Origin: an uncultured Chloroflexia bacterium
GTDB lineage: Bacteria; Chloroflexota; Limnocylindria; Limnocylindrales; CSP1-4
Assembly: GCA_963731995.1 (NCBI GenBank)
Contig: CAVSXV010000004.1
Span: 576,973-640,972, forward strand
Direction of reading: 5' to 3'
DNA length: 64,000 nucleotides
This document shows positions 2 to 49,589 of this stretch, one piece after another. The notes under the pieces were generated by a model that was not told the DNA's origin, made no database searches, and saw only the letters and a list, made by a program, of their open reading frames with translations. The translations under genes and the position numbers were made by a program. How positions within the stretch are numbered: position 1 is the stretch's first letter; each line of letters opens with the position of its first letter.

Positions 2-1054
2 ACGAACGTGACCATCGCCTACCGCCGCACCCGCTCGGAGCTGGTCGTGGACGAGGAGGAGTTGGGGGAGACCGAGCGCGAGGGCGTGACCATGGACTTC
101 CTGGTCAGCCCGGTGGAGCTCATCGACGATGGCGAAGGCAACATCGGCGGGGTCAGGTTCGTGCGCAACAAGCTGGGTGAGCCCGATGCCTCGGGTCGCC
201 GCCGGCCGGTGCCCATCGAGGGCAGCGAGTACGTGGTCCCCGCGCAGACCGTCATCCCGGCCGTGAGCCAGGCGGCGGACAACACCTTCCTGCCCGTGGA
301 GTCCAGCTTCCATATCAACCGCGGCCGCATGCGCGTCGACCCGGGCACCTATGCCACCAACGTCCGTGGCGTCTTCGCCTGCGGCGACTTCGTGACCGGC
401 CCCACCACGCTCATCGAGGCGGCCGGCCACGGCAAGAAGGCTGCCTACGCGATCGACCGCTACCTGTCGGGGCGCTCGACCGTGGAGGTCGATGCCAACG
501 TCCGCATCGTCAGCTCCTCGCGTCACGACATGCCCGAGTCCTACGACCGGCTGGCGCGCCAGCACATCCCGGTCGTGCCGGTAGAGGCGCGCATCCCCAG
601 CGACGACCCGACGGTCAACTTCAGCACGCCGATGGAGATCGGCTACGGTGTCGAGGGCGCCGTGGCCGAGTCCACGCGTTGCCTCATGTGCAACTACAAC
701 ATCTGGTTCGACGGCTTCCGCTGCGTGCTCTGCGGCGCGTGCGCGGACGTCTGCCCCGAGGGCGTCATCCACATGATCGACGTCAACCAGATGAAATCGG
801 AGGGCGCGCTGCCCGAGTTGGTGGACGGCTACGGCTGGACCCAGGGCGCAGCCATGGTCCTCGACGAGGAGCGCTGCATCCGCTGCGCGCTCTGCGTGAA
901 GCGGTGTCCCTACGACGCCATCACCATGGAGCGGTTCGAGATGCAGGAGCTCAGTGAGGACGGTAGGCTCTACAAGGAGTCGTACCGTGACACCCAGCTC
1001 GGGCTGGCGGGTGTCGGAAACCAGGCAGACGCAGGGGGACACACACCTCGATGA
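2..1054 (+). CDS. GltD-like FAD/NAD(P)-dependent oxidoreductase (C-terminal part) fused to a 2x[4Fe-4S] ferredoxin domain; 5' end lies outside the window
   Basis: The frame is open to the window edge. '[18 protein letters not shown]' and '[26 protein letters not shown]' are typical of glutamate-synthase small-subunit-like flavoenzymes. Two CxxCxxCxxxCP boxes are present ([24 protein letters not shown]). Confidence 0.8.
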
Positions 1055-1067
1055 CGGTGACACGGCG

Positions 1068-1796
1068 TTGAGCTTCCTCGAACGCATCGACAACGGGATC
1101 CGCCGCAGCGCGGTCTTCCGCTCGATCTTCCGACAGCCCTATCCCAGCGATGAGCGCTCGCGCGCCATGGCCGTGATGAACAACGTGTTCCTGCACCTTC
1201 ACCCGGTGCGGGTGCGCCAGCACGCGGTCAAGTTCGCCTACACCTTCTGCCTGGGCGGCCTCTCGTTCTTCTTCTTCCTGGTGCTGACGGTCACGGGCGT
1301 CTACCTGATGTTCTTCTACGTCCCGTCGGCGACCCAGGCCTACTCGGACATCCTGCGCATCCAGGCGGAGGTGCCGTTCGGGTTGCTGACCAGGAACATC
1401 CACCGGTGGGCGGCCCACCTGATGGTGTTCTTCGTCTTCCTGCACATGATGCGGGTCTTCTATCACGGCGCCTACAAGCCACCACGCGAGTTCAACTGGG
1501 TGGTCGGCGTGGTGCTGCTGCTGCTGACCGTCTTCCTCTCCTTCACCGGCTACCTGTTGCCGTGGGACCAGATCGCCTACTGGGCCATCACCATCGGCAC
1601 CAACATGGCCACCTTCGCGCCGCTCTTCAACACCCCCAGCCAGCTGCTGCTGCTGGGCGGTATCGAGGTCGGCCAGAACACCCTGCTGCGCTTCTATGTT
1701 CTGCACGTGATCCTGATGCCGCTGGTAGCGGCCATCTTCCTGGCTGTTCACTTCTGGCGTATCCGCAAGGACGGAGGTATCAGCGGTCCCCTGTAG
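1068..1796 (+). CDS. cytochrome b6-type cytochrome b (N-terminal half of a split cytochrome b)
   Basis: ORF 954..1796. '[28 protein letters not shown]', '[15 protein letters not shown]' and '[11 protein letters not shown]' carry the paired haem-ligand histidines in four hydrophobic helices. The start was placed at the in-frame TTG at 1068, just after the upstream stop (1052-1054), and is uncertain. Confidence 0.85.
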
Positions 1797-1811
1797 ACCG
1801 ATGGACAAGCG

Positions 1812-2453
1812 ATGAGCGACGAGAGCAAGACCCCCAAGGTTCCCGCCGCCCCGCCGGCCTCCCAGCCGGAGCGGCGTTCGACCCTGCCTGCTGCCCCGCC
1901 GGAACGGCGCGTGACGGAGATCGACAAGCAGCGCGTGCCGATGGCCGCCAAGCCCTACCGGCTACTGGCCCTGGTCAAGCAGGATGCCGTGGTCCGTGTC
2001 CAGAAGGAACCGGACGACACGGTCATGACCTGGCCGCACCTGCTCAGCATCGAGTTCTTCGCGGCGGCCATGATGAGCATCTTCCTGCTCCTGATGGGCT
2101 TGTTCGTGAACGCCCCGCTCGAGGAGCTGGCCAACGGCAACGTCACCCCCGCCGTGGCCAAGGCGCCGTGGTACTTCGTGGGCCTGCAGGAGCTGCTGGC
2201 CTACTTCCACCCCACGGTCGCCGGCGTGCTCGCGCCCACCGTCATCCTCGTCGGCGCGGCGCTCGTGCCCTTCATCGACCGAGGCCCCAAGGGCGACGGC
2301 GGCTCGCCTCGTCCATCGGACCGCAAGGTCGGCGTGATGCTCTTCACGCTGTTCATGGGCGCGGGCCTGACGATCACCTTCCTGGGAGCCTTCTTCCGCG
2401 GGCCGGGCTACGCCTGGACGATGCCGTGGGATGGCTTCTTCTTCGCACTGTAG
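1812..2453 (+). CDS. cytochrome b subunit IV-like protein (C-terminal half of a split cytochrome b)
   Basis: 'KAPWYFVGLQELLAYFHP' is the PEWY-loop equivalent and is followed by hydrophobic helices. There is a Pro/Ala-rich N-terminal extension. The gene lies 15 nt after the cytochrome b6 stop. Confidence 0.75.
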   Translation: MSDESKTPKVPAAPPASQPERRSTLPAAPPERRVTEIDKQRVPMAAKPYRLLALVKQDAVVRVQKEPDDTVMTWPHLLSIEFFAAAMMSIFLLLMGLFVNAPLEELANGNVTPAVAKAPWYFVGLQELLAYFHPTVAGVLAPTVILVGAALVPFIDRGPKGDGGSPRPSDRKVGVMLFTLFMGAGLTITFLGAFFRGPGYAWTMPWDGFFFAL

Positions 2454-2460
2454 GGACACC

Positions 2461-3129
2461 ATGGGTAACTGGAAGCTGACACGAACCCAAGAGCCCCAGG
2501 CGCTGACCGAGCCGGTCCTGAGTGAGATGCGCAAGGGCAAGATCGGTGGCCTCACCCGCCGCCAGCTCATCCGCCGCTCCATCGGGGCGGCTGTGGCGCT
2601 GTGGCTGCTGGAGGTCGGCGCCGGCACGCTCGGCTTCCTGTGGCCCAATCTGGCTCGCGGTTTCGGCGGCCAGGTCAACCTCGGTGACTTCGACACCGTG
2701 GCCGAGAGTCCGGACAATCCGGCCGCGACGCTCACCCAAGGTGGCGCCTCCTACTTCTCGAGTGCCCGTGCCTTCATCGTCCTCAACGATCCCAATCTCG
2801 CGTTCCAGAACGGTGAATCAGCTGATGGCGAAGGGACTGCCACCAACGTCCGGACGCTGTACCAGAAGTGCCCCCACCTGGGCTGCAAGCCCAACTTCTG
2901 CGACACCAACTACTGGTTCGAGTGCCCCTGCCATGGTTCGCGCTACGACCGCCTGGGGACCAAGGTCAAGGAGCTGGGCCCGGCCCCGCGCGGCCTTGAC
3001 CGCTTCCCGCACACCGTGCAGGACGGGAATCTCACGGTCGATACCGGCAGGATCGTGCTCGGGCCGCTGCCCGTGGCCCTCGGTCAGCCCGGCCTTATCC
3101 CGGCCAAGTCGCCCACGGGCTGCATTTGA
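2461..3129 (+). CDS. Rieske 2Fe-2S protein
   Basis: 'CPHLGC' (from 2869) and 'CPCHGSRYD' (from 2923) are the cluster-binding boxes. The N-terminal 'TRRQLIRRSIGAAVALWLL' looks like a Tat-like signal or membrane anchor. ORF 2431..3129; ATG 2461 was chosen as start. Confidence 0.85.
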   Translation: MGNWKLTRTQEPQALTEPVLSEMRKGKIGGLTRRQLIRRSIGAAVALWLLEVGAGTLGFLWPNLARGFGGQVNLGDFDTVAESPDNPAATLTQGGASYFSSARAFIVLNDPNLAFQNGESADGEGTATNVRTLYQKCPHLGCKPNFCDTNYWFECPCHGSRYDRLGTKVKELGPAPRGLDRFPHTVQDGNLTVDTGRIVLGPLPVALGQPGLIPAKSPTGCI

Positions 3130-4779
3130 TGAGCGAAGAGAAGACCGGACGTGAGCTCGCGCCGCGCGAGCCCTCTGATGTCGGGCCCCCGGATGGCTCG
3201 CTGACGCCGGTCGAAGGCGACAACCGCGAGGTCGAGCGGTTCAGCGCCGGTCCCCGTGCTCACAGCGTGGGTCTGACCGAGGAGCGCTCCGCGAAGATCG
3301 TCCGCCAGAGCGCCAACGCGCGCAACGTCGTCTTCCTCGCGATCCTGCTCATCGCACTCTTCATCCCGGTCTACTGGTTCTACGAGAGCGGCATCCCCGC
3401 GCTGGGCACCGAAGGCCGCCTTGCAGCAGAGGCGGACACCCAGTACGTGACCGACGTGGCCCGTGGCTACGAGCTCTACCTCGCCAACTGCGCCACCTGC
3501 CACGGCGAGGACGGCCAGGGCGGAATCGGCCCCCGGCTCAACGACCAGGGCAAGCTCTACAACGTGCTCACGCCCGGCGGCGATCCGGGCACGGGGCACC
3601 TCAACCCCGACTACCTGCACAACGTGCTCAACGTCGGCGGACGCTACGTGTGCGGCGACCCCAACAGCCTGATGGCCCAGTGGCAGCGGCCCGCCGGGCC
3701 GCTCAACTACCGGCAGATCGAGGAGCTCATCGCCTGGGTGACGGCCAGCCAGGACGTCACCTTCGAGCGGCGCGTGGAGACACACGGCGAGGGTGTCCAG
3801 GGCGAACCCGAGTTCATCTCCGGCTGGCGCGACCCCGACTATCAGCCTGGCCCGGAGGACACCCCGGTGCCTGACTGCTGGAAGGCACCCGGTGGACTCG
3901 TACCGGGCACCGTCGAAACCACCGGCACCACCGGTACGACCGGCACTCCCGACACGGGCACGGCGGATACGTCCACCATGGGCATCACCGCCGGCACGCC
4001 AGATGCGCCCCGCGTGATCAGGATGACCGCCACCGCCTCGCTGCAGTTCATCGGCGAGGATGATGCCCCGCTGACCCAGATCGACGTCCTCCCAGGCGAG
4101 ACCATCGAGTTCGTGGTGGACAACGGGGCTGGCTTCGATCACAACTTCTACATCGGCACGCCAGAAGAGCTGCAGGTCCCGTTCGGTGAGACGGATGCTG
4201 GCATCCCCACCTGGCAGTCGGGCGAGCAGACCCTCATCTGGACGGCGCCTGAAACCGGTGTCGACAACCTCCAGTTCGCCTGCACGGTGCCCGGCCACTA
4301 CCAGCCCATGCACGGCGACATCAGGTTCAGCGGTGGTGAGCCCGCCGCGGAAGCGAGCCCGGACGGCGGAGCTGCCGAGGCGACCCCCGCTGCCGGCGAG
4401 ACCGGTGGGGCAGAACCCGCCGCTGGCGTGGGCACTCCGGATGCACCGCGCATCGTCGAATCTCACGGCCACCGCTGCGCTGCAGTTCCTGGGTGAGGAC
4501 GGGGCCCCGCTCAAGCTGCTCGATGCGGTGCCGGGCGAGACCATCGAGTTCGTCATCGACAATGAGGCCGGCTTCGACCACAACTTCTGGATCGGCCCCA
4601 CGGACGAGGTCTCCGTGCCGAACAACGAGACCGACAACGGCATCCCCACCTGGCAGTCCGGCGAACAGACGCTGACGTGGACCGTGCCCGAGGCCGGAAC
4701 CGAGGGTCTGCAGTTCGGCTGCACGATCCCCGGCCACTATGCCGCCGGCATGCACGGCGATATCGTGATCTCGGGCTAG
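3129..4779 (+). CDS. membrane-anchored mono-haem cytochrome c fused to two tandem type-1 copper (cupredoxin) domains; frame broken near 4455-4460
   Basis: ATG 3129 overlaps the Rieske TGA (TGATG). There is a TM helix 'VVFLAILLIALFIPVYWFY' and a haem box 'CATCH' at 3489-3503. Two ~105-aa modules each follow 'GTPDAPR(V/I)': 'GFDHNFYIG...FACTVPGHYQPMHGD' (frame of 3126..4496) and 'GFDHNFWIG...FGCTIPGHYAAGMHGD' (frame of 4186..4779). Confidence 0.75.
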
Positions 4780-4792
4780 GACAGGAGACGAC

Positions 4793-6289
4793 GTGTCACA
4801 GCAAGCACTCCCACAGGGCGCCACCCGCCGACGCGCTGCCTTCGGGCTGTTCGACGCGAACGGCTGGACCTGGGCCGGGCTGAAGGCGACCTTCTGGTTC
4901 CTGTTCATCATCTTCATGCTCGGGGTCGTGCCCAACTGGACCTACTACATCACCACCAGCGAGACCATCACCGTCGGCTACAACTTCGCCTCGATCGTCA
5001 ATCTCTGTCCCGCCGATAACGAGGACCTGCCCTGTCCGGCACCGGCCGGAGCCATGAAGCCCTGGCAGACCTCACCCCCGGAGCTGGCCCTGCCGGCGGC
5101 ACGCTCGGGCTCAGCTGTCTACCAGTCAGGTGCGACCGTCTACCTGCTTGGTGGCGTGGTCGACGGCACGGCCACCGATGAGGTCCTCGAGACCAAGATC
5201 AGCGAGGACGGCAACCTCAGCGGCTGGACCGCCGGTCCGGCCCTGCCGGAGCCACGCAGCGACATGGCTGTGGGCATGTACGGCGGTGTCCCCTTCGTGA
5301 TGGGGGGCCTCGATGGCGAGGGCAAGGCCACAGCCACGGTCTACAAGGGCACCGTGGAGGAAGGCGTACTGACAGGATGGGAGCTGCAGGACGGCCAGGA
5401 CCGCTCGCTACCATTGACCCTGCCGCAGCCGCTCAGCGGCGCCTCGGTGCTTCCCGGTACCAGCGGCTTCGTGCTCATCGGCGGGCGTGACGCCAACGGC
5501 GAACCCGTGAACGGCGTGCACGTAGCCTGGAGCGATACCGGCACCACCTCCGACGACCTCCTGGCCTGGGAGCCGCTCGACGAGCAGCTCGCACTGCCCG
5601 AGCCGCGTGCCGATGCGGTGGTGGCCACGATCGCCGACTTCATCTACGTGGTCGGGGGCGAAGGACCCGATGGGCCTACCGACAGCGTGTTCCGCCTCGA
5701 GCTGCGCGATCGTGAGCCGGCCGTCAACGAGGCCGGCGACCTGCTGGGCTGGGCGGTGGCACCAGCCGAGGAGTCCTTGCCCGCGCCGCGGGCCGATGCC
5801 ACCAGCTTCACCGCCAATGGCGCGGTCTTCGTCATCGGCGGCCTCGACGACCAAGGCGCCCCGCAGACATCGATGTTGTGGGCCGTGCCCGATACGACCA
5901 CCGGCGACATCGATAGCTGGCTGCAGCTCGCGCAGACCGACCTGCCCGTGGCCACCGCGGACGCACCGCTCGTGGGCGTGGGCTCGCATGTGTTCGTCTT
6001 CGGGGGCCAGACGCCCGACGGTCCGACGGACGGGTCGTTGCGCGCGGGAATCTCACCGCGCCCACCGTTCTTCCAGCTGGGCATCGCCGGCGCCACCATC
6101 CCTGGCCTCGCCATCAAGGGTGAGGTCGGCCAGCAGCTGGGCTACATGAACGCCATGGGCGTGGGCATGCTCAACTTCGTGATCCTGATCATCATCGGGG
6201 TGGCCTTCAGCCGGCCGGAGTCGAGCAAGCGCGTGATCGGTCGGATCCTGCGCATCAAGCCGGAGCCGGACGAGCAGTACCGCAGCTAA
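4793..6289 (+). CDS. Kelch-repeat beta-propeller membrane protein
   Basis: Six blade-like repeats are visible (VYLLGGVVDG, PFVMGGLDGEG, FVLIGGRDANG, IYVVGGEGPDG, VFVIGGLDDQG, VFVFGGQTPDG). They lie between an N-terminal TM (FWFLFIIFMLGVV) and a C-terminal TM (MLNFVILIIIGVAF). GTG start with AGGAG upstream. Confidence 0.7.
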   Translation: MSQQALPQGATRRRAAFGLFDANGWTWAGLKATFWFLFIIFMLGVVPNWTYYITTSETITVGYNFASIVNLCPADNEDLPCPAPAGAMKPWQTSPPELALPAARSGSAVYQSGATVYLLGGVVDGTATDEVLETKISEDGNLSGWTAGPALPEPRSDMAVGMYGGVPFVMGGLDGEGKATATVYKGTVEEGVLTGWELQDGQDRSLPLTLPQPLSGASVLPGTSGFVLIGGRDANGEPVNGVHVAWSDTGTTSDDLLAWEPLDEQLALPEPRADAVVATIADFIYVVGGEGPDGPTDSVFRLELRDREPAVNEAGDLLGWAVAPAEESLPAPRADATSFTANGAVFVIGGLDDQGAPQTSMLWAVPDTTTGDIDSWLQLAQTDLPVATADAPLVGVGSHVFVFGGQTPDGPTDGSLRAGISPRPPFFQLGIAGATIPGLAIKGEVGQQLGYMNAMGVGMLNFVILIIIGVAFSRPESSKRVIGRILRIKPEPDEQYRS

Positions 6290-7485
6290 CGCCCCCGCCG
6301 GGCGATCGCCAGCACCGGCTGGGCGGAGTCGTCCACCGCAACCAATCGCAGGTCCGGCGCGCGTGCCACGATGCTCGTGTCCGCCACGGCCACGATGCCT
6401 CCGCGCTCCAGGACCCGGGCCGGATCGAGCTTGGCGTCTGCGGCCATCACCACCAGGCGGTAGTGGCCGTCGGGTAGGTGGCGGGCCTCGTCTGCGGCTG
6501 CGACAAGCCACTCGAAGCCATCGGGAAGGGGTGTGCTGGGCGCTTCTCCGATCCATACGGCCGGGCCTCCGGAAGCCATGGCGGCCGCCTCCGTGACGTG
6601 GACCATCCAGCGGCGCTGCGCCGTCCTGGCAGCCTCGATCCCGACGCGCTCGTAGTCGTCGATCGCGCTGCGCAGCGGTTCGAGGACGGCCGTGTTGGCG
6701 CCATCGAGCCAGGCCACGGTGCTTGCGCCGGCGTCGAGCCAGTCGGTCAGCGGGTCGTTCGAGGGGGCCACCGCCCCCCATGCCAGCTCGCTGTCCGAGA
6801 CGATGGCGCGATCGGGGAGGGGGCCGGGTAGCAGCAGCCGTGCCACGCCCAGCGCGCGGGCCCATTCGAGCCAGGCCTCGAGATCGGCGCTGGCGAGCGC
6901 CTCGGTGGTCAGGGCGGTCCACACCGGCAGTCCCATCTCGAGCGCTTCGACGGTCGCTGTACGCGCGTCTGACTCGCCTCGCTGGCCCTCGACGAGGATG
7001 AGGTCCGGCTCCGCGTCGGCGATGGCCCCGGCCTGGTCGCGGTAGTCGCGTTCGGTCGCAGCTTCATGGGGCAGGAGCCGCCCGGTTGCGACCTCCGGCT
7101 CCTCGTCAAGCGCGGGCAGCGACGCGGCCACGAGGGGTGCGGGGCGGCTTCGGCGGACCTCGTCATCGGGCGCCTCGATGAGGGCTTCCTCGCGTCGCTC
7201 CATGCCGATCTCGAGCGCCTGTCGCGCGGTGCGTACGGCGGCTGCGGTCCAGGCTCCGGCGCGGCGGGTCTCACCGAGGGGCAGCAAGGCCCGACGGTGC
7301 GTCAGCCAGGTGGGTGCGACGACCACGTCGGCACCAGCGGCGACCTGGCCAGCGAGCCGCTCGCGAGCGGCTGGCTCGTCGCGCAGGTGGAGTGGCAGGT
7401 ACCAGTCAGCGTCGTCGGCGTTCGGACGCGCCGGCACCCGCTCCGGACCGACCGATCCAGCCAGCAAGCGCACGCGGTCTGCCAT
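6286..7485 (-). CDS. hypothetical protein; N-terminal region resembles the homocysteine S-methyltransferase fold but has no Cys
   Basis: 399-aa ORF with good GC3. 'LLAGSVGPER...VAAGADVVVAPTWLT' recalls S-methyl_trans domains. The protein contains no cysteine. It lies 23 nt downstream of the rhodanese gene on the same strand. Confidence 0.45.
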   Translation of the reverse strand: MADRVRLLAGSVGPERVPARPNADDADWYLPLHLRDEPAARERLAGQVAAGADVVVAPTWLTHRRALLPLGETRRAGAWTAAAVRTARQALEIGMERREEALIEAPDDEVRRSRPAPLVAASLPALDEEPEVATGRLLPHEAATERDYRDQAGAIADAEPDLILVEGQRGESDARTATVEALEMGLPVWTALTTEALASADLEAWLEWARALGVARLLLPGPLPDRAIVSDSELAWGAVAPSNDPLTDWLDAGASTVAWLDGANTAVLEPLRSAIDDYERVGIEAARTAQRRWMVHVTEAAAMASGGPAVWIGEAPSTPLPDGFEWLVAAADEARHLPDGHYRLVVMAADAKLDPARVLERGGIVAVADTSIVARAPDLRLVAVDDSAQPVLAIARRGR

Positions 7486-7508: not shown

Positions 7509-7883
7509 CTAGAAGTCGCCCTCGCCGGGCTCCGGCTCACCACTGGTGGTGGGCAGGCCCGCATTGTGCCAGGCCACGATGCCGCCGCTGACGTTGGTCA
7601 CGTTCTCGAAGCCGTTGGCCGCGAGGAACTGGGTCGCGTTGGCGCTGCGGCCCCCGGTGCGGCACATCAACAGGATCTCGCGGTCACGCGGCAGATCCCT
7701 GACGCGATTGTTGAGACGGCCGAGCGGCAGCAGCACCGCGCCCCTGGCCCGCAGCTGTGCGTATTCATTGGGCTCCCGCACGTCGATGATGAGGGCCCCG
7801 ACATCGTCGCCCTGCATCTCGGCAGCCTGCTTGACGTCGACCGAGGGCACACCCTGGCCCATGAGGTTGCGAAGGAAGGACAT
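7509..7883 (-). CDS. rhodanese-domain sulfurtransferase
   Basis: 'IIDVREPNEY...ILLMCRTGGRSANATQFLAANGFENVTNVSGGIVAWHNAG' carries the active-site CRxGxR loop. ATG 7883 (MSFLRN...) was chosen inside ORF 7509..7970. Confidence 0.85.
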   Translation of the reverse strand: MSFLRNLMGQGVPSVDVKQAAEMQGDDVGALIIDVREPNEYAQLRARGAVLLPLGRLNNRVRDLPRDREILLMCRTGGRSANATQFLAANGFENVTNVSGGIVAWHNAGLPTTSGEPEPGEGDF

Positions 7884-8084
7884 GTCTACTCCAGTTTGGG
7901 TCGGTGGTACGCGGCTGGAGAACGACCCAGCCTTGAGCTTCGTGGAGACACGGCGGCGTCTCAGCGCCATAGCCTAGATGCTACCCGTGCTCCGCGTGCC
8001 AGACGGCTTCAGGCACCGTTGGCGGCGACTGGTGCCACGGCCGTATGCTTCTCACTCGATAGCCGGACTTCGCTCGGAGGGACG

Positions 8085-11941: not shown

Positions 11942-13471
11942 ATGGCCCAGCACGAGATGCCGGCCGCGTCTGCCGAGTCTGCCGACGCCCGCCAAGCCGA
12001 CCCCAGCGACCAGCCTCTCGCGAGCCCTCGCTCGTCACGCTGGGCCATCTCACGCGGCTCGTTGGTCGCTTTCATGGCGGTGCTCCTGCCAGCCGCGGCC
12101 TCTCTGCTGGCGCCCGTGCTCACCGAGGACATCGCCTACCACTTGCGCTCAGGCGCGCACATGCTCGAGACCCGTGCGCTGCTCGACGCGGACCTCTTCA
12201 CCTTCACCGTCGCGGGCGATGCCTGGCTGAACCAGCAATGGGCCGCGAGCGTCCTCTTCGCGGCGGTCTACGACGTCGCTGGCTGGCTGGGCCTGCTGAT
12301 CCTGCGCTCGGTGCTCATCGGAGCCGCCTTCGGGCTGGTCTACCTCGCCTGTCGGGCCAGCCAGGCCAACCGCATCGTGGCTTCGCTGGTGACCCTCGGT
12401 GCGTTCGTGGTGGCGGCCACCAACCTCGCTCTGCGCTCGCAGCTGTTCGGGGTCGTCTTCTTCGCGGGGGTGCTGGCGATCCTGGCCTGGCGTCGGAAGC
12501 ACCCGTGGCTGCTGGTGCTCATCCCGCTCTTGATGGTGGCCTGGGCCAACACGCATGGCTCGTTCTTCATCGGCTGGGCCGCGATCGGGGTGGCCTTCCT
12601 CGAGGACCTCGTCGCCCGAAGACGGCTGGCCGCCGCGACCTTCGCGGTCGGCGTCCTGAGCGTGCTCGCCACGCTGGTCACGCCGTGGGGCGCGGAGATG
12701 TGGGTCTACGTCGTGGATCTCTCCTCCAACCCCGTCGTCGCTGCTCTCGTGAGCGAGTGGCAGGCTCCCACGCTCGGCTCGGCGACCGGGATCTTCTTCT
12801 TCGCCTCGGTCGCGCTGGTGGTCGGCTTGCTGCTGTATCGCGGTCGCGTCATCTCGTGGCTGCAAGTGCTCTGGCTCGGGGGTCTCGTCCTGCTCAGCCT
12901 GATGGCTGCCCGCAGCGTCGTCTGGTGGGCACTTGGCGCCGCCCCGGTGGTGGCGTTGCTCCTGAGTGGCCTGGAGGTCCGCGGTCACCGGGTCGGCGAT
13001 CCCGCCTACGACGAACCCCGCGGCATCGGCTACACCGCCATCGCCGGGCTGCTCATCGTGCTCACGCTCGCGGTCGTGCCCTTCTACCGCCCGAGCGACC
13101 CGCTCTACGGTCCCGAAGGTGTCGTCCAGCACGCGCCACGCGGGGTGACCGAGGCCCTCGCGGCCGAAGCAGGCCCCGGCGACCGGCTCTACGCTGCCCA
13201 GCGATGGGGTTCGTGGTTGGAGTTCGCGCTTCCCGGGGTGCCGGTGATGGTCGACACGCGCATCGAGCTCTTCGACAGCGAGATCTGGTCCGACTACCTG
13301 GCGGTCGCGAGTGGGCGGTCTGACTGGTCGGAGGTCCTGGAGCGCTGGGGCGTCACTCTCATCGCAGCCGAAGCCGGGAACCAGGACCTGCTCCCGTTCG
13401 TCGAGGCCGATGATCGCTGGCAGCGGGTGCACGCCGACGATGAAGGCGCCGTCTACCGGAAGGTGCGGTAG
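11942..13471 (+). CDS. polytopic integral membrane protein (GT-C-like glycosyltransferase fold suspected)
   Basis: More than 10 hydrophobic helices are followed by a soluble C-terminal domain. 'DIAYHLRSGAHMLETRALLDADLFTFTVAGDAWLNQQW' sits near the N-terminus. ORF 11873..13471; ATG 11942 chosen. Confidence 0.55.
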   Translation: MAQHEMPAASAESADARQADPSDQPLASPRSSRWAISRGSLVAFMAVLLPAAASLLAPVLTEDIAYHLRSGAHMLETRALLDADLFTFTVAGDAWLNQQWAASVLFAAVYDVAGWLGLLILRSVLIGAAFGLVYLACRASQANRIVASLVTLGAFVVAATNLALRSQLFGVVFFAGVLAILAWRRKHPWLLVLIPLLMVAWANTHGSFFIGWAAIGVAFLEDLVARRRLAAATFAVGVLSVLATLVTPWGAEMWVYVVDLSSNPVVAALVSEWQAPTLGSATGIFFFASVALVVGLLLYRGRVISWLQVLWLGGLVLLSLMAARSVVWWALGAAPVVALLLSGLEVRGHRVGDPAYDEPRGIGYTAIAGLLIVLTLAVVPFYRPSDPLYGPEGVVQHAPRGVTEALAAEAGPGDRLYAAQRWGSWLEFALPGVPVMVDTRIELFDSEIWSDYLAVASGRSDWSEVLERWGVTLIAAEAGNQDLLPFVEADDRWQRVHADDEGAVYRKVR

Positions 13472-16562: not shown

Positions 16563-17858
16563 CTACGACGTGGCGTCGACCAGCAGAACGACCCCGAAGG
16601 TGCCATCGGCAGGGGAGCCGATAGCGTAGGCGCTGTAGTTCGTGCCCTTTTCGAGCGAGACTGCCGGCAGGTCGGCGATGACGCTCTTCTTGCCCGGTTT
16701 GCGGACGTCCAGGTCGTAGTCGCCCGCCTTCAGGGTCAGGTACTTGCCGACATCCTTGTAGGAGACCTTCTTGGCGATCGCGTCCTTGGGCTTGGCGCCG
16801 TCGGGAGCGATGTCGACCTTGGGTGCGTCAGCGCTCAGATGACCCAGGCGAAGCTTCGCTCGGTTGGCCTTGGTCACGGTGTTGTCCTTGACGACCGTGG
16901 CGTCGATGTTTGCGAGGTCATTACTCGCGATGATGGTCGTACGCGTCCCACCCTCGAAGGGCAGGGTCGCATCGATGACGACCGGGCTCTCCTCGAGCGA
17001 GCCGCCCGACGGGATGATCTGGATCTGGTTCTCTCCGACCGGCACGGTGAGATAGGGCGAGCTCAGCCCGAACGGCAGGTTCCCGAAGACCCGAACGCCG
17101 TTGATGACGACGTCGATCGGCGGTGCATCTGGTGATCCGTGGAGGATGCGCACCTGTGCCGTGGTAGGGACGGAGGCGTCGAGCGCTGGGACGACGGTGA
17201 ACGTTCCTGCTTCGAGACTGCCGACCGCGAACGCGCTGGAGCTCGTTCCGGCGGCGAACTCGAGCGGCGGCAGTGTGACCACCGCGTCGGGGCTGCCGGT
17301 GGCTCGAACCTCGAGCTCGTAGCTGCCGGGGGGCAGGTTCGCGTAGCCGGAGTCATCCGGATATGCCAGGTTGGTGATGATGGGGTCACCGCCGACAGGT
17401 GCGATGTCGACCGGCGGGGCGTCGAACGCGAAATGGACGACGCGTGCCTGGGCCTCCGTCGGGCTGGGGTTGGGATCGTCGATCACCGACTGCGGGACGA
17501 TGCCGTCCGCGAGGCTGCCAGTGGCCGCCACGGTGGTGGCTGTACCCGCTTCGAACGTGATCGGGGCATCGATGACCACCGGACCCTCGTCGAGCGTCGC
17601 GCCCGCGGGCACGACCTGGATCTGATACTCGGCTCCCGGGACCTCCAGGTAGTCGGTGATGGAGCCGAACTCCAGCCCCTCCACGATGCGATCGCCGTTG
17701 GCGTACACGTCCACGGCCGGTGCATCGCCGGAGCCGTGAAGGACGCGCACCTTGGCGTTCTCGCCCTGGGCCGCTGTTGCCGCCGGCATGGCCAGGAGTG
17801 CCGCAAGTGCTAACGAGCTGGCGAGCACCTTGGCACTGTGGATGGTCGATCGGGGCAT
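16563..17858 (-). CDS. secreted DUF4397 repeat protein
   Basis: A signal peptide is followed by four repeats of the type 'VRVLHGSGDAPAVDVYANG', 'ARVVHFAFDAPPVDIAP', 'VRILHGSPDAPPIDVVING' and 'LRLGHLSADAPKVDIAP'. GGAGGA precedes the ATG. Confidence 0.8.
   Translation of the reverse strand: MPRSTIHSAKVLASSLALAALLAMPAATAAQGENAKVRVLHGSGDAPAVDVYANGDRIVEGLEFGSITDYLEVPGAEYQIQVVPAGATLDEGPVVIDAPITFEAGTATTVAATGSLADGIVPQSVIDDPNPSPTEAQARVVHFAFDAPPVDIAPVGGDPIITNLAYPDDSGYANLPPGSYELEVRATGSPDAVVTLPPLEFAAGTSSSAFAVGSLEAGTFTVVPALDASVPTTAQVRILHGSPDAPPIDVVINGVRVFGNLPFGLSSPYLTVPVGENQIQIIPSGGSLEESPVVIDATLPFEGGTRTTIIASNDLANIDATVVKDNTVTKANRAKLRLGHLSADAPKVDIAPDGAKPKDAIAKKVSYKDVGKYLTLKAGDYDLDVRKPGKKSVIADLPAVSLEKGTNYSAYAIGSPADGTFGVVLLVDATS

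Positions 17859-47705: not shown

Positions 47706-49589
<1,884 letters not shown>

Follow-up and report, generated by a model that had tools for sequence, protein, structure and literature searches.

An operon combining a split-cytochrome b6 Rieske complex with an NAD(P)H-type flavoprotein in Limnocylindria (Chloroflexota)

We present here a six-gene operon encoding a cytochrome bc-type respiratory complex together with an NAD(P)H-type flavoprotein (FP), from the genome of an uncultured soil/sediment bacterium of the Limnocylindria (Chloroflexota; Limnocylindrales; CSP1-4). It occupies positions 2-6289 of a 64,000-nucleotide stretch of contig CAVSXV010000004.1 (assembly GCA_963731995.1, positions 576,973 to 640,972), which is called the window below (G+C content, ~68%). 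All six genes are on the + strand, co-oriented and tightly packed. An initial annotation, made by a model from the letters and their open reading frames (ORFs), had described six same-strand genes with this domain content. The positions were confirmed, and searches with Pfam and NCBIfam hidden Markov models supported its b6, subunit IV (suIV), Rieske, cytochrome c/cupredoxin, Kelch and GltD-like calls, every one of them with Pfam. The operon is confirmed as real, and its genes are as follows.

2..1054, + strand: FP gene, 3′ part (350 codons); Pfam Pyr_redox_2 tail and two Fer4 domains
1068..1796, + strand: cytochrome b6, 242 amino acids (aa), TTG start; Pfam Cytochrome_B, E 1e-46
1812..2453, + strand: suIV, 213 aa; Pfam Cytochrom_B_C (petD-type)
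2431..3129 (alternative start 2461), + strand: Rieske [2Fe-2S] protein; Pfam Rieske
3126..4779, + strand: cytochrome c-2x cupredoxin gene (gene 5), 550 aa with a frameshift corrected; Pfam
3126..4496, + strand: raw ORF of gene 5; Pfam Cytochrom_C/CBB3
4186..4779, + strand, other frame: raw ORF of gene 5; Pfam Copper-bind (plastocyanin/azurin-type)
4793..6289, + strand: Kelch membrane protein, 498 aa; Pfam Kelch families

The spacers are +13 nucleotides (nt) for FP/b6, +15 nt for b6/suIV, -4 nt for Rieske/cytochrome c and +13 nt for cupredoxin/Kelch. The gaps or overlaps of 15 nt or less first described hold for these four junctions; at suIV/Rieske the spacer depends on the start, being -23 nt with the ATG at 2431 and +7 nt with the ATG at 2461. 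An S-methyltransferase-like gene (6286..7485, - strand) converges on the operon end. The gene upstream of the FP, outside the window, is divergent in the near-identical locus L031 (CAVQPG010000006.1), which has a 100% identical cytochrome b6 and 87-99% identity in the other proteins. With these two neighbours the unit is bounded on both sides. A scan for promoter- and terminator-like sites inside the operon found none above shuffled expectation and gave neither boundaries nor an internal terminator. Metatranscriptome contigs from sediment and salt-marsh samples, ~85-98% identical to the window and therefore from related organisms, cross the following junctions.

996-1349 and 1000-1163: FP/b6
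1286-1821 and 1674-2233: b6/suIV
2373-2670: suIV/Rieske
4755-4953: cupredoxin/Kelch

The junctions at 1054/1068 and 4779/4793, where the initial annotation had allowed for transcript boundaries, are both spanned. These RNA-derived contigs support co-transcription, short of proof because DNA carry-over in the libraries is possible.

Gene 1 is truncated by the window edge, which leaves the C-terminal 350 aa; the full length is 618-630 aa, as in L031 (P0001, 618 aa), and the 5′ part outside the window encodes two N-terminal Cys clusters and the FAD fold. The protein, cytoplasmic as judged from its sequence, belongs with the GltD/NfnB-like FAD/NAD(P)(H) flavoproteins and carries a 2x[4Fe-4S] domain at its C-terminus, whose Cys motifs lie at 680-757 and 875-910. 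A PDB search aligned residues 18-430 end to end with NfnA, NfnB and GltD (E 1e-106 to 1e-62). The NCBIfam model PRK12771 ('NAD(P)-binding protein') also matches end to end, below its cut-off, and the gltA/gltD models score under theirs. There are 21 conserved Cys, the N-terminal cluster motifs keeping all eight of theirs; the Cys motifs suffice for four [4Fe-4S] clusters, and a transmembrane (TM) segment is absent. The motif 'YRRT' ('...AYRRT...') is conserved and common to NfnA and to GltD/NfnB. The likeness to NfnAB, GltD and dihydropyrimidine dehydrogenase-type enzymes thus covers two N-terminal cluster motifs, the FAD/NAD(P)H folds and 'YRR'. Unlike NfnAB/GltD, the FP continues into a further 2x[4Fe-4S] domain at the C-terminus and a conserved tail, and its genomic partner is cytochrome b6; no GltB or NfnA-type partner gene was found beside it in the window, in L031 or in the 80 loci compared below. 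Source records name FP homologues 'glutamate synthase beta' or 'formate dehydrogenase beta'.

The four haem-ligand histidines of b6 lie within 1398-1451 and 1695-1757, with the spacing typical of b6: H-x13-H for the pair in helix B, H-x14-H for that in helix D. The CxGG Cys for haem cn is in 'FCLGG' (1245-1259), and 'YTFCLGG' is present in all loci of the Limnocylindria and of the Chloroheliales-like Chloroflexia introduced below. suIV lacks CxxCH. Its Qo motif 'KAPWYF' (2160-2177) does not vary in any of the 150+ relatives compared, anammox and FP-less loci among them, and the Glu of 'SIEFF' (2046-2060) is conserved across all groups. We take this 'EF'-motif Glu as the putative axial ligand of haem cn; a Glu ligand of suIV type has been linked to a low-potential haem cn (PMC12954380). 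The exact suIV protein sequence was not on record in an exact-sequence look-up. The Rieske protein has a twin-arginine/TM segment (RRQLIRR, 2557-2577), box I CPHLGC (2869-2886) and box II CPCHGSRY with a Ser/Tyr pair (2923-2946). Its best PDB matches are the two Rieske proteins of the Kuenenia stuttgartiensis Rieske/cytochrome b (R/b) complexes (9rk4 and 9rk3, E 2e-11), followed by b6f Rieske proteins (E 2e-8).

Gene 5 encodes, in order, a cytoplasmic N-terminus, a TM anchor (3327-3383), a haem domain with a single CATCH motif (3489-3503) and hence one haem, a Thr/Gly/Pro-rich linker and two tandem cupredoxins. The copper-ligand motifs are at 4134-4151/4275-4316 and 4573-4590/4714-4758, and each cupredoxin keeps the full type-1 set His...Cys-x4-His-x3/4-Met. 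Their best solved relative in the PDB is auracyanin B of Chloroflexus, and the ligand loop reads 'CT(I/F)PGHY(A/L)AGM'. In Chloroflexus, alternative complex III has auracyanin as its blue-copper acceptor. This protein shares the C-x4-H-x4-M loop and the phylum; it is a free partner of that complex, whereas the copper domains of the window are a tandem fusion to the cytochrome c of a Rieske/cytochrome b complex. The number of fused cupredoxins is not constant even between close relatives: the window, L031 and L004 have two and L002 has one, and in many of loci L001-L056 only the cytochrome c part of this region (~12060-13400 in locus coordinates) matches, with ~400 nt unmatched before the Kelch gene. 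By these motifs, the operon encodes a split-b6 Rieske/cytochrome b complex with haems bp, bn and covalent cn, suIV, the Rieske protein, the cytochrome c-cupredoxin and the Kelch protein.

To place this operon, b6 was scanned against one genome per species, which gave >590 relatives, of which the best 80 loci were compared. Almost all of these come from metagenome-assembled genomes (MAGs) titled Limnocylindria/Limnocylindrales or 'Chloroflexia' (Chloroflexota). The FP gene lies directly before b6 in ~65 of the 68 loci with at least 1.9 kb upstream: 58 pass a strict automated criterion, and 7 fail it only because the best FP match is partial or overlaps the b6 start. The three exceptions are the orphan b6 paralogues L047 and L050 and the Ktedonobacteraceae locus L079. 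suIV and Rieske genes follow b6 in 69 of 71 loci. Recurrence on this scale is far beyond chance. The order FP-b6-suIV-Rieske-cytochrome c holds into a second Limnocylindria group with 67-75% b6 and ~51% FP identity, in which the cytochrome c at this position is di-haem.

The orphan paralogues (L047:10001-10729 and L050:10001-10726) share 81-83% identity with the operon copy. A tblastn search of the two 20.7-kb loci found no gene for an FP, suIV or Rieske protein, and the neighbours in L047 are unrelated by ORF inspection. L050 comes from the same MAG as the full-operon locus L055, so some Limnocylindria have a second, stand-alone b6.

A first search for FP homologues returned only relatives of >80% identity, and the distribution was taken instead from 1.84 billion cluster representatives. 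The architecture of a GltD-like part with a C-terminal di-cluster domain is widespread, with many clusters of 560-650 aa that are 36-47% identical. The genomic contexts of five of them are as follows.

P0124 (locus L161): FP-b6-suIV-Rieske-cytochrome c-EB_dh (haem-b-type domain)
P0131 (locus L168): FP-b6
P0123, P0143 and P0125 (loci L164-L167 and L162-L163): stand-alone, no cytochrome b nearby

P0124-type FPs occur in MAGs titled Chloroflexia, including Ca. Chlorohelix sp. ELA319, and FP-b6-suIV-Rieske-cytochrome c is the order in most of L161 and L169-L182 (Chloroheliales-like Chloroflexia). Conservation of the six-gene order, raised as a check by the initial annotation, therefore extends for the first five genes across Limnocylindria and a second Chloroflexota class; the Kelch gene is confined to a Limnocylindrales-like subgroup. 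A genome scan with P0123, the nearest stand-alone FP, returned only Limnocylindria operon FPs, at 41-44% identity. In a neighbor-joining (NJ) tree the Limnocylindria FPs (bootstrap 100) are sister to the stand-alone P0123 (99) and P0143 (96), and not to anammox or Chloroheliales-like FPs. The tree, a crude one with contexts for few FP clades, suggests either repeated recruitment or repeated loss of the FP.

In a Nitriliruptorales MAG (L080:4006-4353), a gene 12 nt upstream of b6 encodes a protein of 115 aa that is nothing but a 2x[4Fe-4S] domain, homologous to the FP C-terminus. It looks like a pared-down n-side FeS module, and it points to the C-terminal di-cluster domain of the FP as a possible b6-facing or docking module. 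Operons with no FP also exist, in the Ktedonobacteraceae locus L079 and in ~65 Rieske-b6-suIV loci found with a Kustd1480-type Rieske scan, whose titles name Planctomycetota, Acidobacteriota, delta-proteobacterial and other MAGs.

FP-linked and FP-less complexes have the core motifs in common (CxGG, KAPWYF, the suIV Glu and the Rieske Ser). Motif counts for b6 were made on an alignment of 148-163 homologues. Only 3 of 242 b6 columns (110, 171 and 203) separate FP-linked from FP-less proteins, and a column comparison with the FP-less relatives found no n-side docking signature in the b6 of FP-linked proteins. A comparison with b6f seems to place column 171, the clearest of the three (window 1578-1580, Y in 'QIAYWA'), on the p side. 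All FP-linked groups (Limnocylindria, Chloroheliales-like, anammox and L168) have Tyr or Phe there, and 97% of the FP-less relatives, Ktedonobacteraceae and Nitriliruptorales among them, have Ile, Met or Val. The His of the b6 motif 'FLHLHP' (1188-1205) was considered as a signature of FP-linked proteins and rejected, being general to the whole clade and equally conserved where no FP is present. In anammox this N-terminal His of cytochrome b, His62 of Kustd1481, has been proposed to ligate an extra haem b (PMC12954380).

The kind of system is already known. Anammox bacteria have two R/b complexes, R/b-2 (Kustd1480-1485) and R/b-3 (Kuste4569-4574), each with a putative cytoplasmic NAD(P) oxidoreductase (Kustd1483 and Kuste4570), which have been proposed to make NAD(P)H by quinol bifurcation (Hauser 2025, PMC12954380). 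Their subunits are reported to co-migrate, AlphaFold 3 models have been described (PMC12954380), and earlier treatments are those of Kartal 2013 and de Almeida 2016, as cited in PMC12954380. Our comparison was made with the Brocadia and Scalindua clusters L081-L083 (Kustd1480-85 orthologues, fetched with a Kustd1480-type Rieske fragment). The Brocadia and Scalindua FPs are 40-41% identical to the Limnocylindria FP over residues ~20-598, and both have the C-terminal motif 'C..C..C...CP ... C..C..C...CP'; the b6 proteins are 54-55% identical, and suIV has an identical KAPWYF. The likeness therefore comprises a split b6 with CxGG, a KAPWYF suIV, the best-matching Rieske protein and a GltD-like FP encoded next to b6. 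The homology of the window and anammox FPs is at family level, since in the NJ tree they are not sister clades and the Limnocylindria FP is nearer to stand-alone FPs.

Several features set the two apart. The anammox gene order is Rieske-b6-FP...suIV (then a multi-haem cytochrome c) or Rieske-FP-b6-suIV, and that of the window is FP-b6-suIV-Rieske-cytochrome c. On the p side, anammox complexes have hexa- and octa-haem cytochromes and an HAO-like protein, whereas the window has one CxxCH cytochrome c, two cupredoxins and the Kelch protein. The N-terminal domain of the FP has 8 Cys in the window type and 6 in anammox. Anammox hosts are anaerobic chemolithoautotrophs with an anammoxosome; the window type belongs to Chloroflexota of soil, sediment and freshwater. 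In Ca. Brocadia sapporoensis (L082:13082-15055), a 657-aa ORF with a 'DGQQR' motif, DUF262/GmrSD-like by eye, lies between the FP and suIV genes of the R/b-2-type cluster.

A second precedent is subfamily G of cytochrome b, a short form with CxGG that is scattered over Planctomycetes, Ktedonobacteria, Nitrospinae and others (Dibrova et al. 2013, 2017; PMC5600118). Dibrova 2017 noted subfamily G genes near large NAD(P)-binding Cys-rich oxidoreductases 'in many other cases' (PMC5600118). This is a comparative-genomic remark only, in a paper whose main text contains neither the word 'Chloroflexi' nor a cupredoxin fusion or Kelch subunit (PMC5600118), and the likeness is one of features. The b6f complex of chloroplasts and cyanobacteria, reported with bound ferredoxin:NADP+ reductase (FNR; Zhang et al. 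2001, as cited in PMC5600118), resembles the window complex in b6, suIV and haem cn, an n-side NADP(H) flavoenzyme and p-side blue copper (plastocyanin). It serves as a functional parallel for the reduction of quinone at Qi by NAD(P)H or ferredoxin. Its FNR, however, has an unrelated fold and no FeS clusters, is bound peripherally and is encoded outside the operon; b6f also has cytochrome f and small subunits and a soluble copper protein, whereas the copper domains of the window are fused. Bacillus qcrABC and heliobacterial petCBDA share the menaquinol-type split cytochrome b and the covalent haem ci/cn, but have the Rieske gene first and no FP, cupredoxin or Kelch protein. In Bacillus qcrABC, suIV is fused to cytochrome c.

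The initial annotation had called the composition and gene order of the operon atypical. The operon is real, but its kind had been described already, in anammox R/b-2/3 and by Dibrova 2017 (PMC5600118); the order is atypical against Bacillus qcrABC only and is standard within Chloroflexota. No paper describing this complex in Limnocylindria was found in the literature. The host lineages, the FP-first order, the mono-haem cytochrome c with two auracyanin-like domains, the Kelch membrane subunit and a hint of independent FP recruitment appear to be new.

Our preferred explanation, which we hold tentatively, is an FP-linked b6c complex with NAD(P)H input to menaquinone and a p-side exit through the cupredoxins. 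The FP would dock by its C-terminal di-cluster domain on the n side of b6 and connect NAD(P)(H) with haems bn/cn next to the Qi site, an arrangement modelled for the homologous anammox complexes. Electrons would pass from NAD(P)H through FAD, FeS clusters and haems cn/bn to menaquinone, the FP acting as a built-in, non-pumping NAD(P)H dehydrogenase that feeds the Q cycle, and would leave through the Rieske protein, cytochrome c and the cupredoxins to a terminal oxidase. The Kelch protein may be a p-side accessory or docking subunit. The host is taken to be a heterotroph, and its menaquinone use and probable aerobic life are assumed from general knowledge of Chloroflexota. The link of the flavoprotein to NAD(P)H chemistry, suggested in the initial annotation, has its counterpart in the proposal made for the homologous anammox complexes (PMC12954380), and the interpretation given there is supported.

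The direction of flow is weakly indicated. The core is not remodelled relative to the FP-less sisters, with three distinguishing b6 columns of which one is placed on the p side, so a working Qi site is likely. The relevant potentials are -320 mV for NAD(P)H and about -70 mV for menaquinone (PMC12954380). With such a site and these potentials, electron transfer from NAD(P)H to menaquinone would be downhill, and input would be favoured over bifurcation. A working Qi site would outcompete uphill NAD(P)+ reduction, a difficulty that the anammox authors note themselves (PMC12954380).

Several points weigh against NAD(P)H input. Anammox specialists favour the opposite direction, citing high Rieske potentials tuned by a Ser/Tyr pair (PMC12954380), and the window Rieske protein shares this potential-raising pair (CPCHGSRY). 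An NDH-2-like function attached to complex III has no obvious advantage. The nearest relatives of the FP, P0123 and P0143, stand alone, so FPs of this family also work with no b6. A preference of the FP for NADPH over NADH would rest only on the 'YRRT' motif. Finally, no further respiratory genes were found among the 20 larger ORFs of the window.

The strongest competitor, possible although we consider it unlikely, keeps the same architecture and reverses the flow, making the complex a bifurcating menaquinol:cupredoxin/NAD(P)+ oxidoreductase on the anammox R/b-2/3 model. A quinol at Qo would give one electron downhill to the Rieske protein, cytochrome c and copper, and the other through the very low-potential b haems, cn, FeS and FAD to NAD(P)H. 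The FP, b6, suIV and Rieske proteins are homologous to anammox subunits, and Ser and Tyr, the two residues that raise the potential, are both present in the Rieske protein. A symmetry argument (PMC12954380) predicts, for menaquinone as the quinone, a bp haem of sufficiently low potential for NAD(P)+ reduction. A high-potential sink is at hand in the cupredoxins and then, presumably, O2. The FP is also kept even in genomes whose record titles name streamlined freshwater genera (Ca. Limnocylindrus and Ca. Aquidulcis). Bifurcation, however, requires that quinone reduction at Qi be suppressed, and the n side of b6 shows no systematic change relative to FP-less relatives. If this is the main complex III, respiration obligatorily coupled 1:1 to making NAD(P)H would be wasteful in a heterotroph. 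The anammox FP, moreover, has closer relatives than that of Limnocylindria. Rieske motifs with Ser/Tyr or Ser/Phe also occur in FP-less complexes and are non-discriminating; the Ser/Tyr pair was accordingly rejected as an indicator of bifurcation. A reversible enzyme is possible.

The part of the Kelch protein is a separate question. The protein has TM1 at ~4859-4957, a six-bladed propeller at ~5060-6052, TM2 at ~6122-6211 and a short amphipathic helix. An AlphaFold 2 model (predicted local distance difference test score 82, propeller >90) has a helix at residues 23-55, the six-bladed propeller at ~90-420 and a helix at 444-473, and the propeller is predicted to be on the p side. The gene is present in 38 of 57 loci with at least 5 kb downstream, that is, in all of the Limnocylindrales-like group and in none at 67-75% b6 identity. 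In the second group the gene after the di-haem cytochrome c encodes a ~190-aa multi-TM (apparently four-helix) membrane protein with 48-64% conserved identity. Its first two TMs match the N- and C-terminal TMs of the Kelch protein collinearly (BLASTP, E 3e-6 and 0.11; hhalign profile-profile, E 1.3e-5 and 4.2e-5), and the weak TM1 match recurs at the Kelch gene start in ~45 loci. By eye only, an 'IPGYIYN'-like motif is also present in the large membrane protein that ends the FP-less Ktedonobacteraceae operon (L079), after a cytochrome c-cupredoxin fusion. The TM matches, the same operon position and the similar Ktedonobacteraceae motif suggest a conserved small membrane subunit whose p-side loop gained a propeller in one order.

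It is possible, though we doubt it, that the Kelch protein is instead no structural subunit but an assembly, copper-delivery or unrelated envelope protein at the operon end. Its confinement to the Limnocylindrales-like group would fit this, as would the resemblance of the propeller in Foldseek to generic peptide-binding Kelch domains (KLHDC2, LZTR1 and Keap1). An alignment of homologues showed no copper or metal site, with no invariant His or metal ligands in the propeller and only two invariant Cys (C72 and C81) ahead of it. Yet its place directly after the cytochrome c gene is always kept and the junction is spanned by RNA-derived contigs, and such a role leaves aside the match of both TMs to the same-position membrane protein of the other Limnocylindria group and the similar motif, by eye, in Ktedonobacteraceae. 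Source records name Kelch homologues 'N-acetylneuraminic acid mutarotase'.

It is improbable that the FP is merely co-transcribed, as a soluble NAD(P)H-dependent FeS flavoenzyme acting, for example, with a ferredoxin-like partner, and is not a subunit of the b6c complex. The PRK12771-type architecture is widespread, close relatives (P0123, P0143 and P0125) are not beside cytochrome b, the protein has no TM segment, and sister operons work with no FP (L079 and the ~65 loci). Adjacency to b6 is nevertheless kept in two Chloroflexota classes, anammox and at least one further lineage (L168) despite FP divergence to 38-51% identity, with a 13-nt spacer in the window and RNA-derived contigs across the FP/b6 junction. 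The homologous anammox subunits co-migrate with the complex (PMC12954380), and a di-cluster-only version stands beside b6 in L080.

In the raw window a +1 frame shift at 4457/4458 splits gene 5, with GTCG where relatives and short-read contigs read GTG. Contigs from three independent metagenome runs (X1-X3) are one base shorter at this site, and one of the three agrees with the window at every other position over 437 nt. With C4457 deleted the sequence reads 'APRIVNLTATAALQF' / 'GTPDAPRIVNLTATAALQF', exactly that of L031, and gene 5 is a single uninterrupted ORF in L031 and L004. The extra base is probably an assembly artefact (indel), and the short-read contigs and intact orthologues establish one gene, 3126..4779. 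The initial annotation had missed the frameshift but, once the spurious base is removed, was correct in describing a single cytochrome c/cupredoxin gene. That the locus is decaying, with gene 5 a pseudogene, is highly improbable: the +1 shift of the raw window speaks for it, but the extra base is missing from all three short-read contig sets, orthologues are intact, and both cupredoxin domains keep all copper ligands.

The significance of the operon lies in its distribution and in the comparisons it offers. NAD(P)-oxidoreductase-bearing Rieske/cytochrome b complexes have so far been analysed almost only in anammox bacteria, with a hypothetical function. Hundreds of genomes of Limnocylindria, a class found in soil, sediment and freshwater, keep a homologous module, as do Chloroheliales-like Chloroflexia, and in these Chloroflexota a simple p side of one haem c and blue copper replaces the multi-haem machinery. 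FP-linked and FP-less sister operons in one phylum, with the di-cluster-only version in Nitriliruptorales, are comparators usable for testing NAD(P)H input against NAD(P)H production by quinol bifurcation. Current database names of the FP, Kelch and b6 proteins hide their membership in a respiratory complex. NCBIfam NF040969 ('selenite/tellurite reduction operon b-type cytochrome ExtP') scores 295.3 on b6 against a cut-off of 290, and the ExtQ model (NF040970) scores 46.9 on suIV against 150; the name 'ExtP' would be misleading for the window b6, since the operon holds bc-complex-type genes, the FP and the Kelch gene only.

A broader and speculative reading, which we put forward as doubtful, is that Limnocylindria and Chloroheliales-like bacteria have a housekeeping complex III hard-wired to the NAD(P)(H) pool, where it would work as a one-enzyme NAD(P)H:blue-copper oxidoreductase or else generate NAD(P)H, reversibly or by bifurcation, and that the FP-b6 coupling arose more than once by recruitment of stand-alone PRK12771-type FPs through the di-cluster domain. 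If so, bc complexes linked to NAD(P) would form a general design of respiration and photosynthesis that has been overlooked, and not an anammox oddity, and Chlorohelix, of a type-I reaction-centre phototroph lineage, would have a built-in route of cyclic electron flow analogous to FNR-b6f. The Chloroheliales-like lineage includes a type-I reaction-centre phototroph, and cyclic electron flow is one use to which this phototroph could put an NAD(P)-linked b6c complex.

Other genes of the window, all on the - strand, include a rhodanese gene at 7509-7970, a gene for a four-repeat DUF4397 protein at 16563-17858 and a gene for a 627-aa sigma-70 (RpoD-like) protein at 47706-49589.

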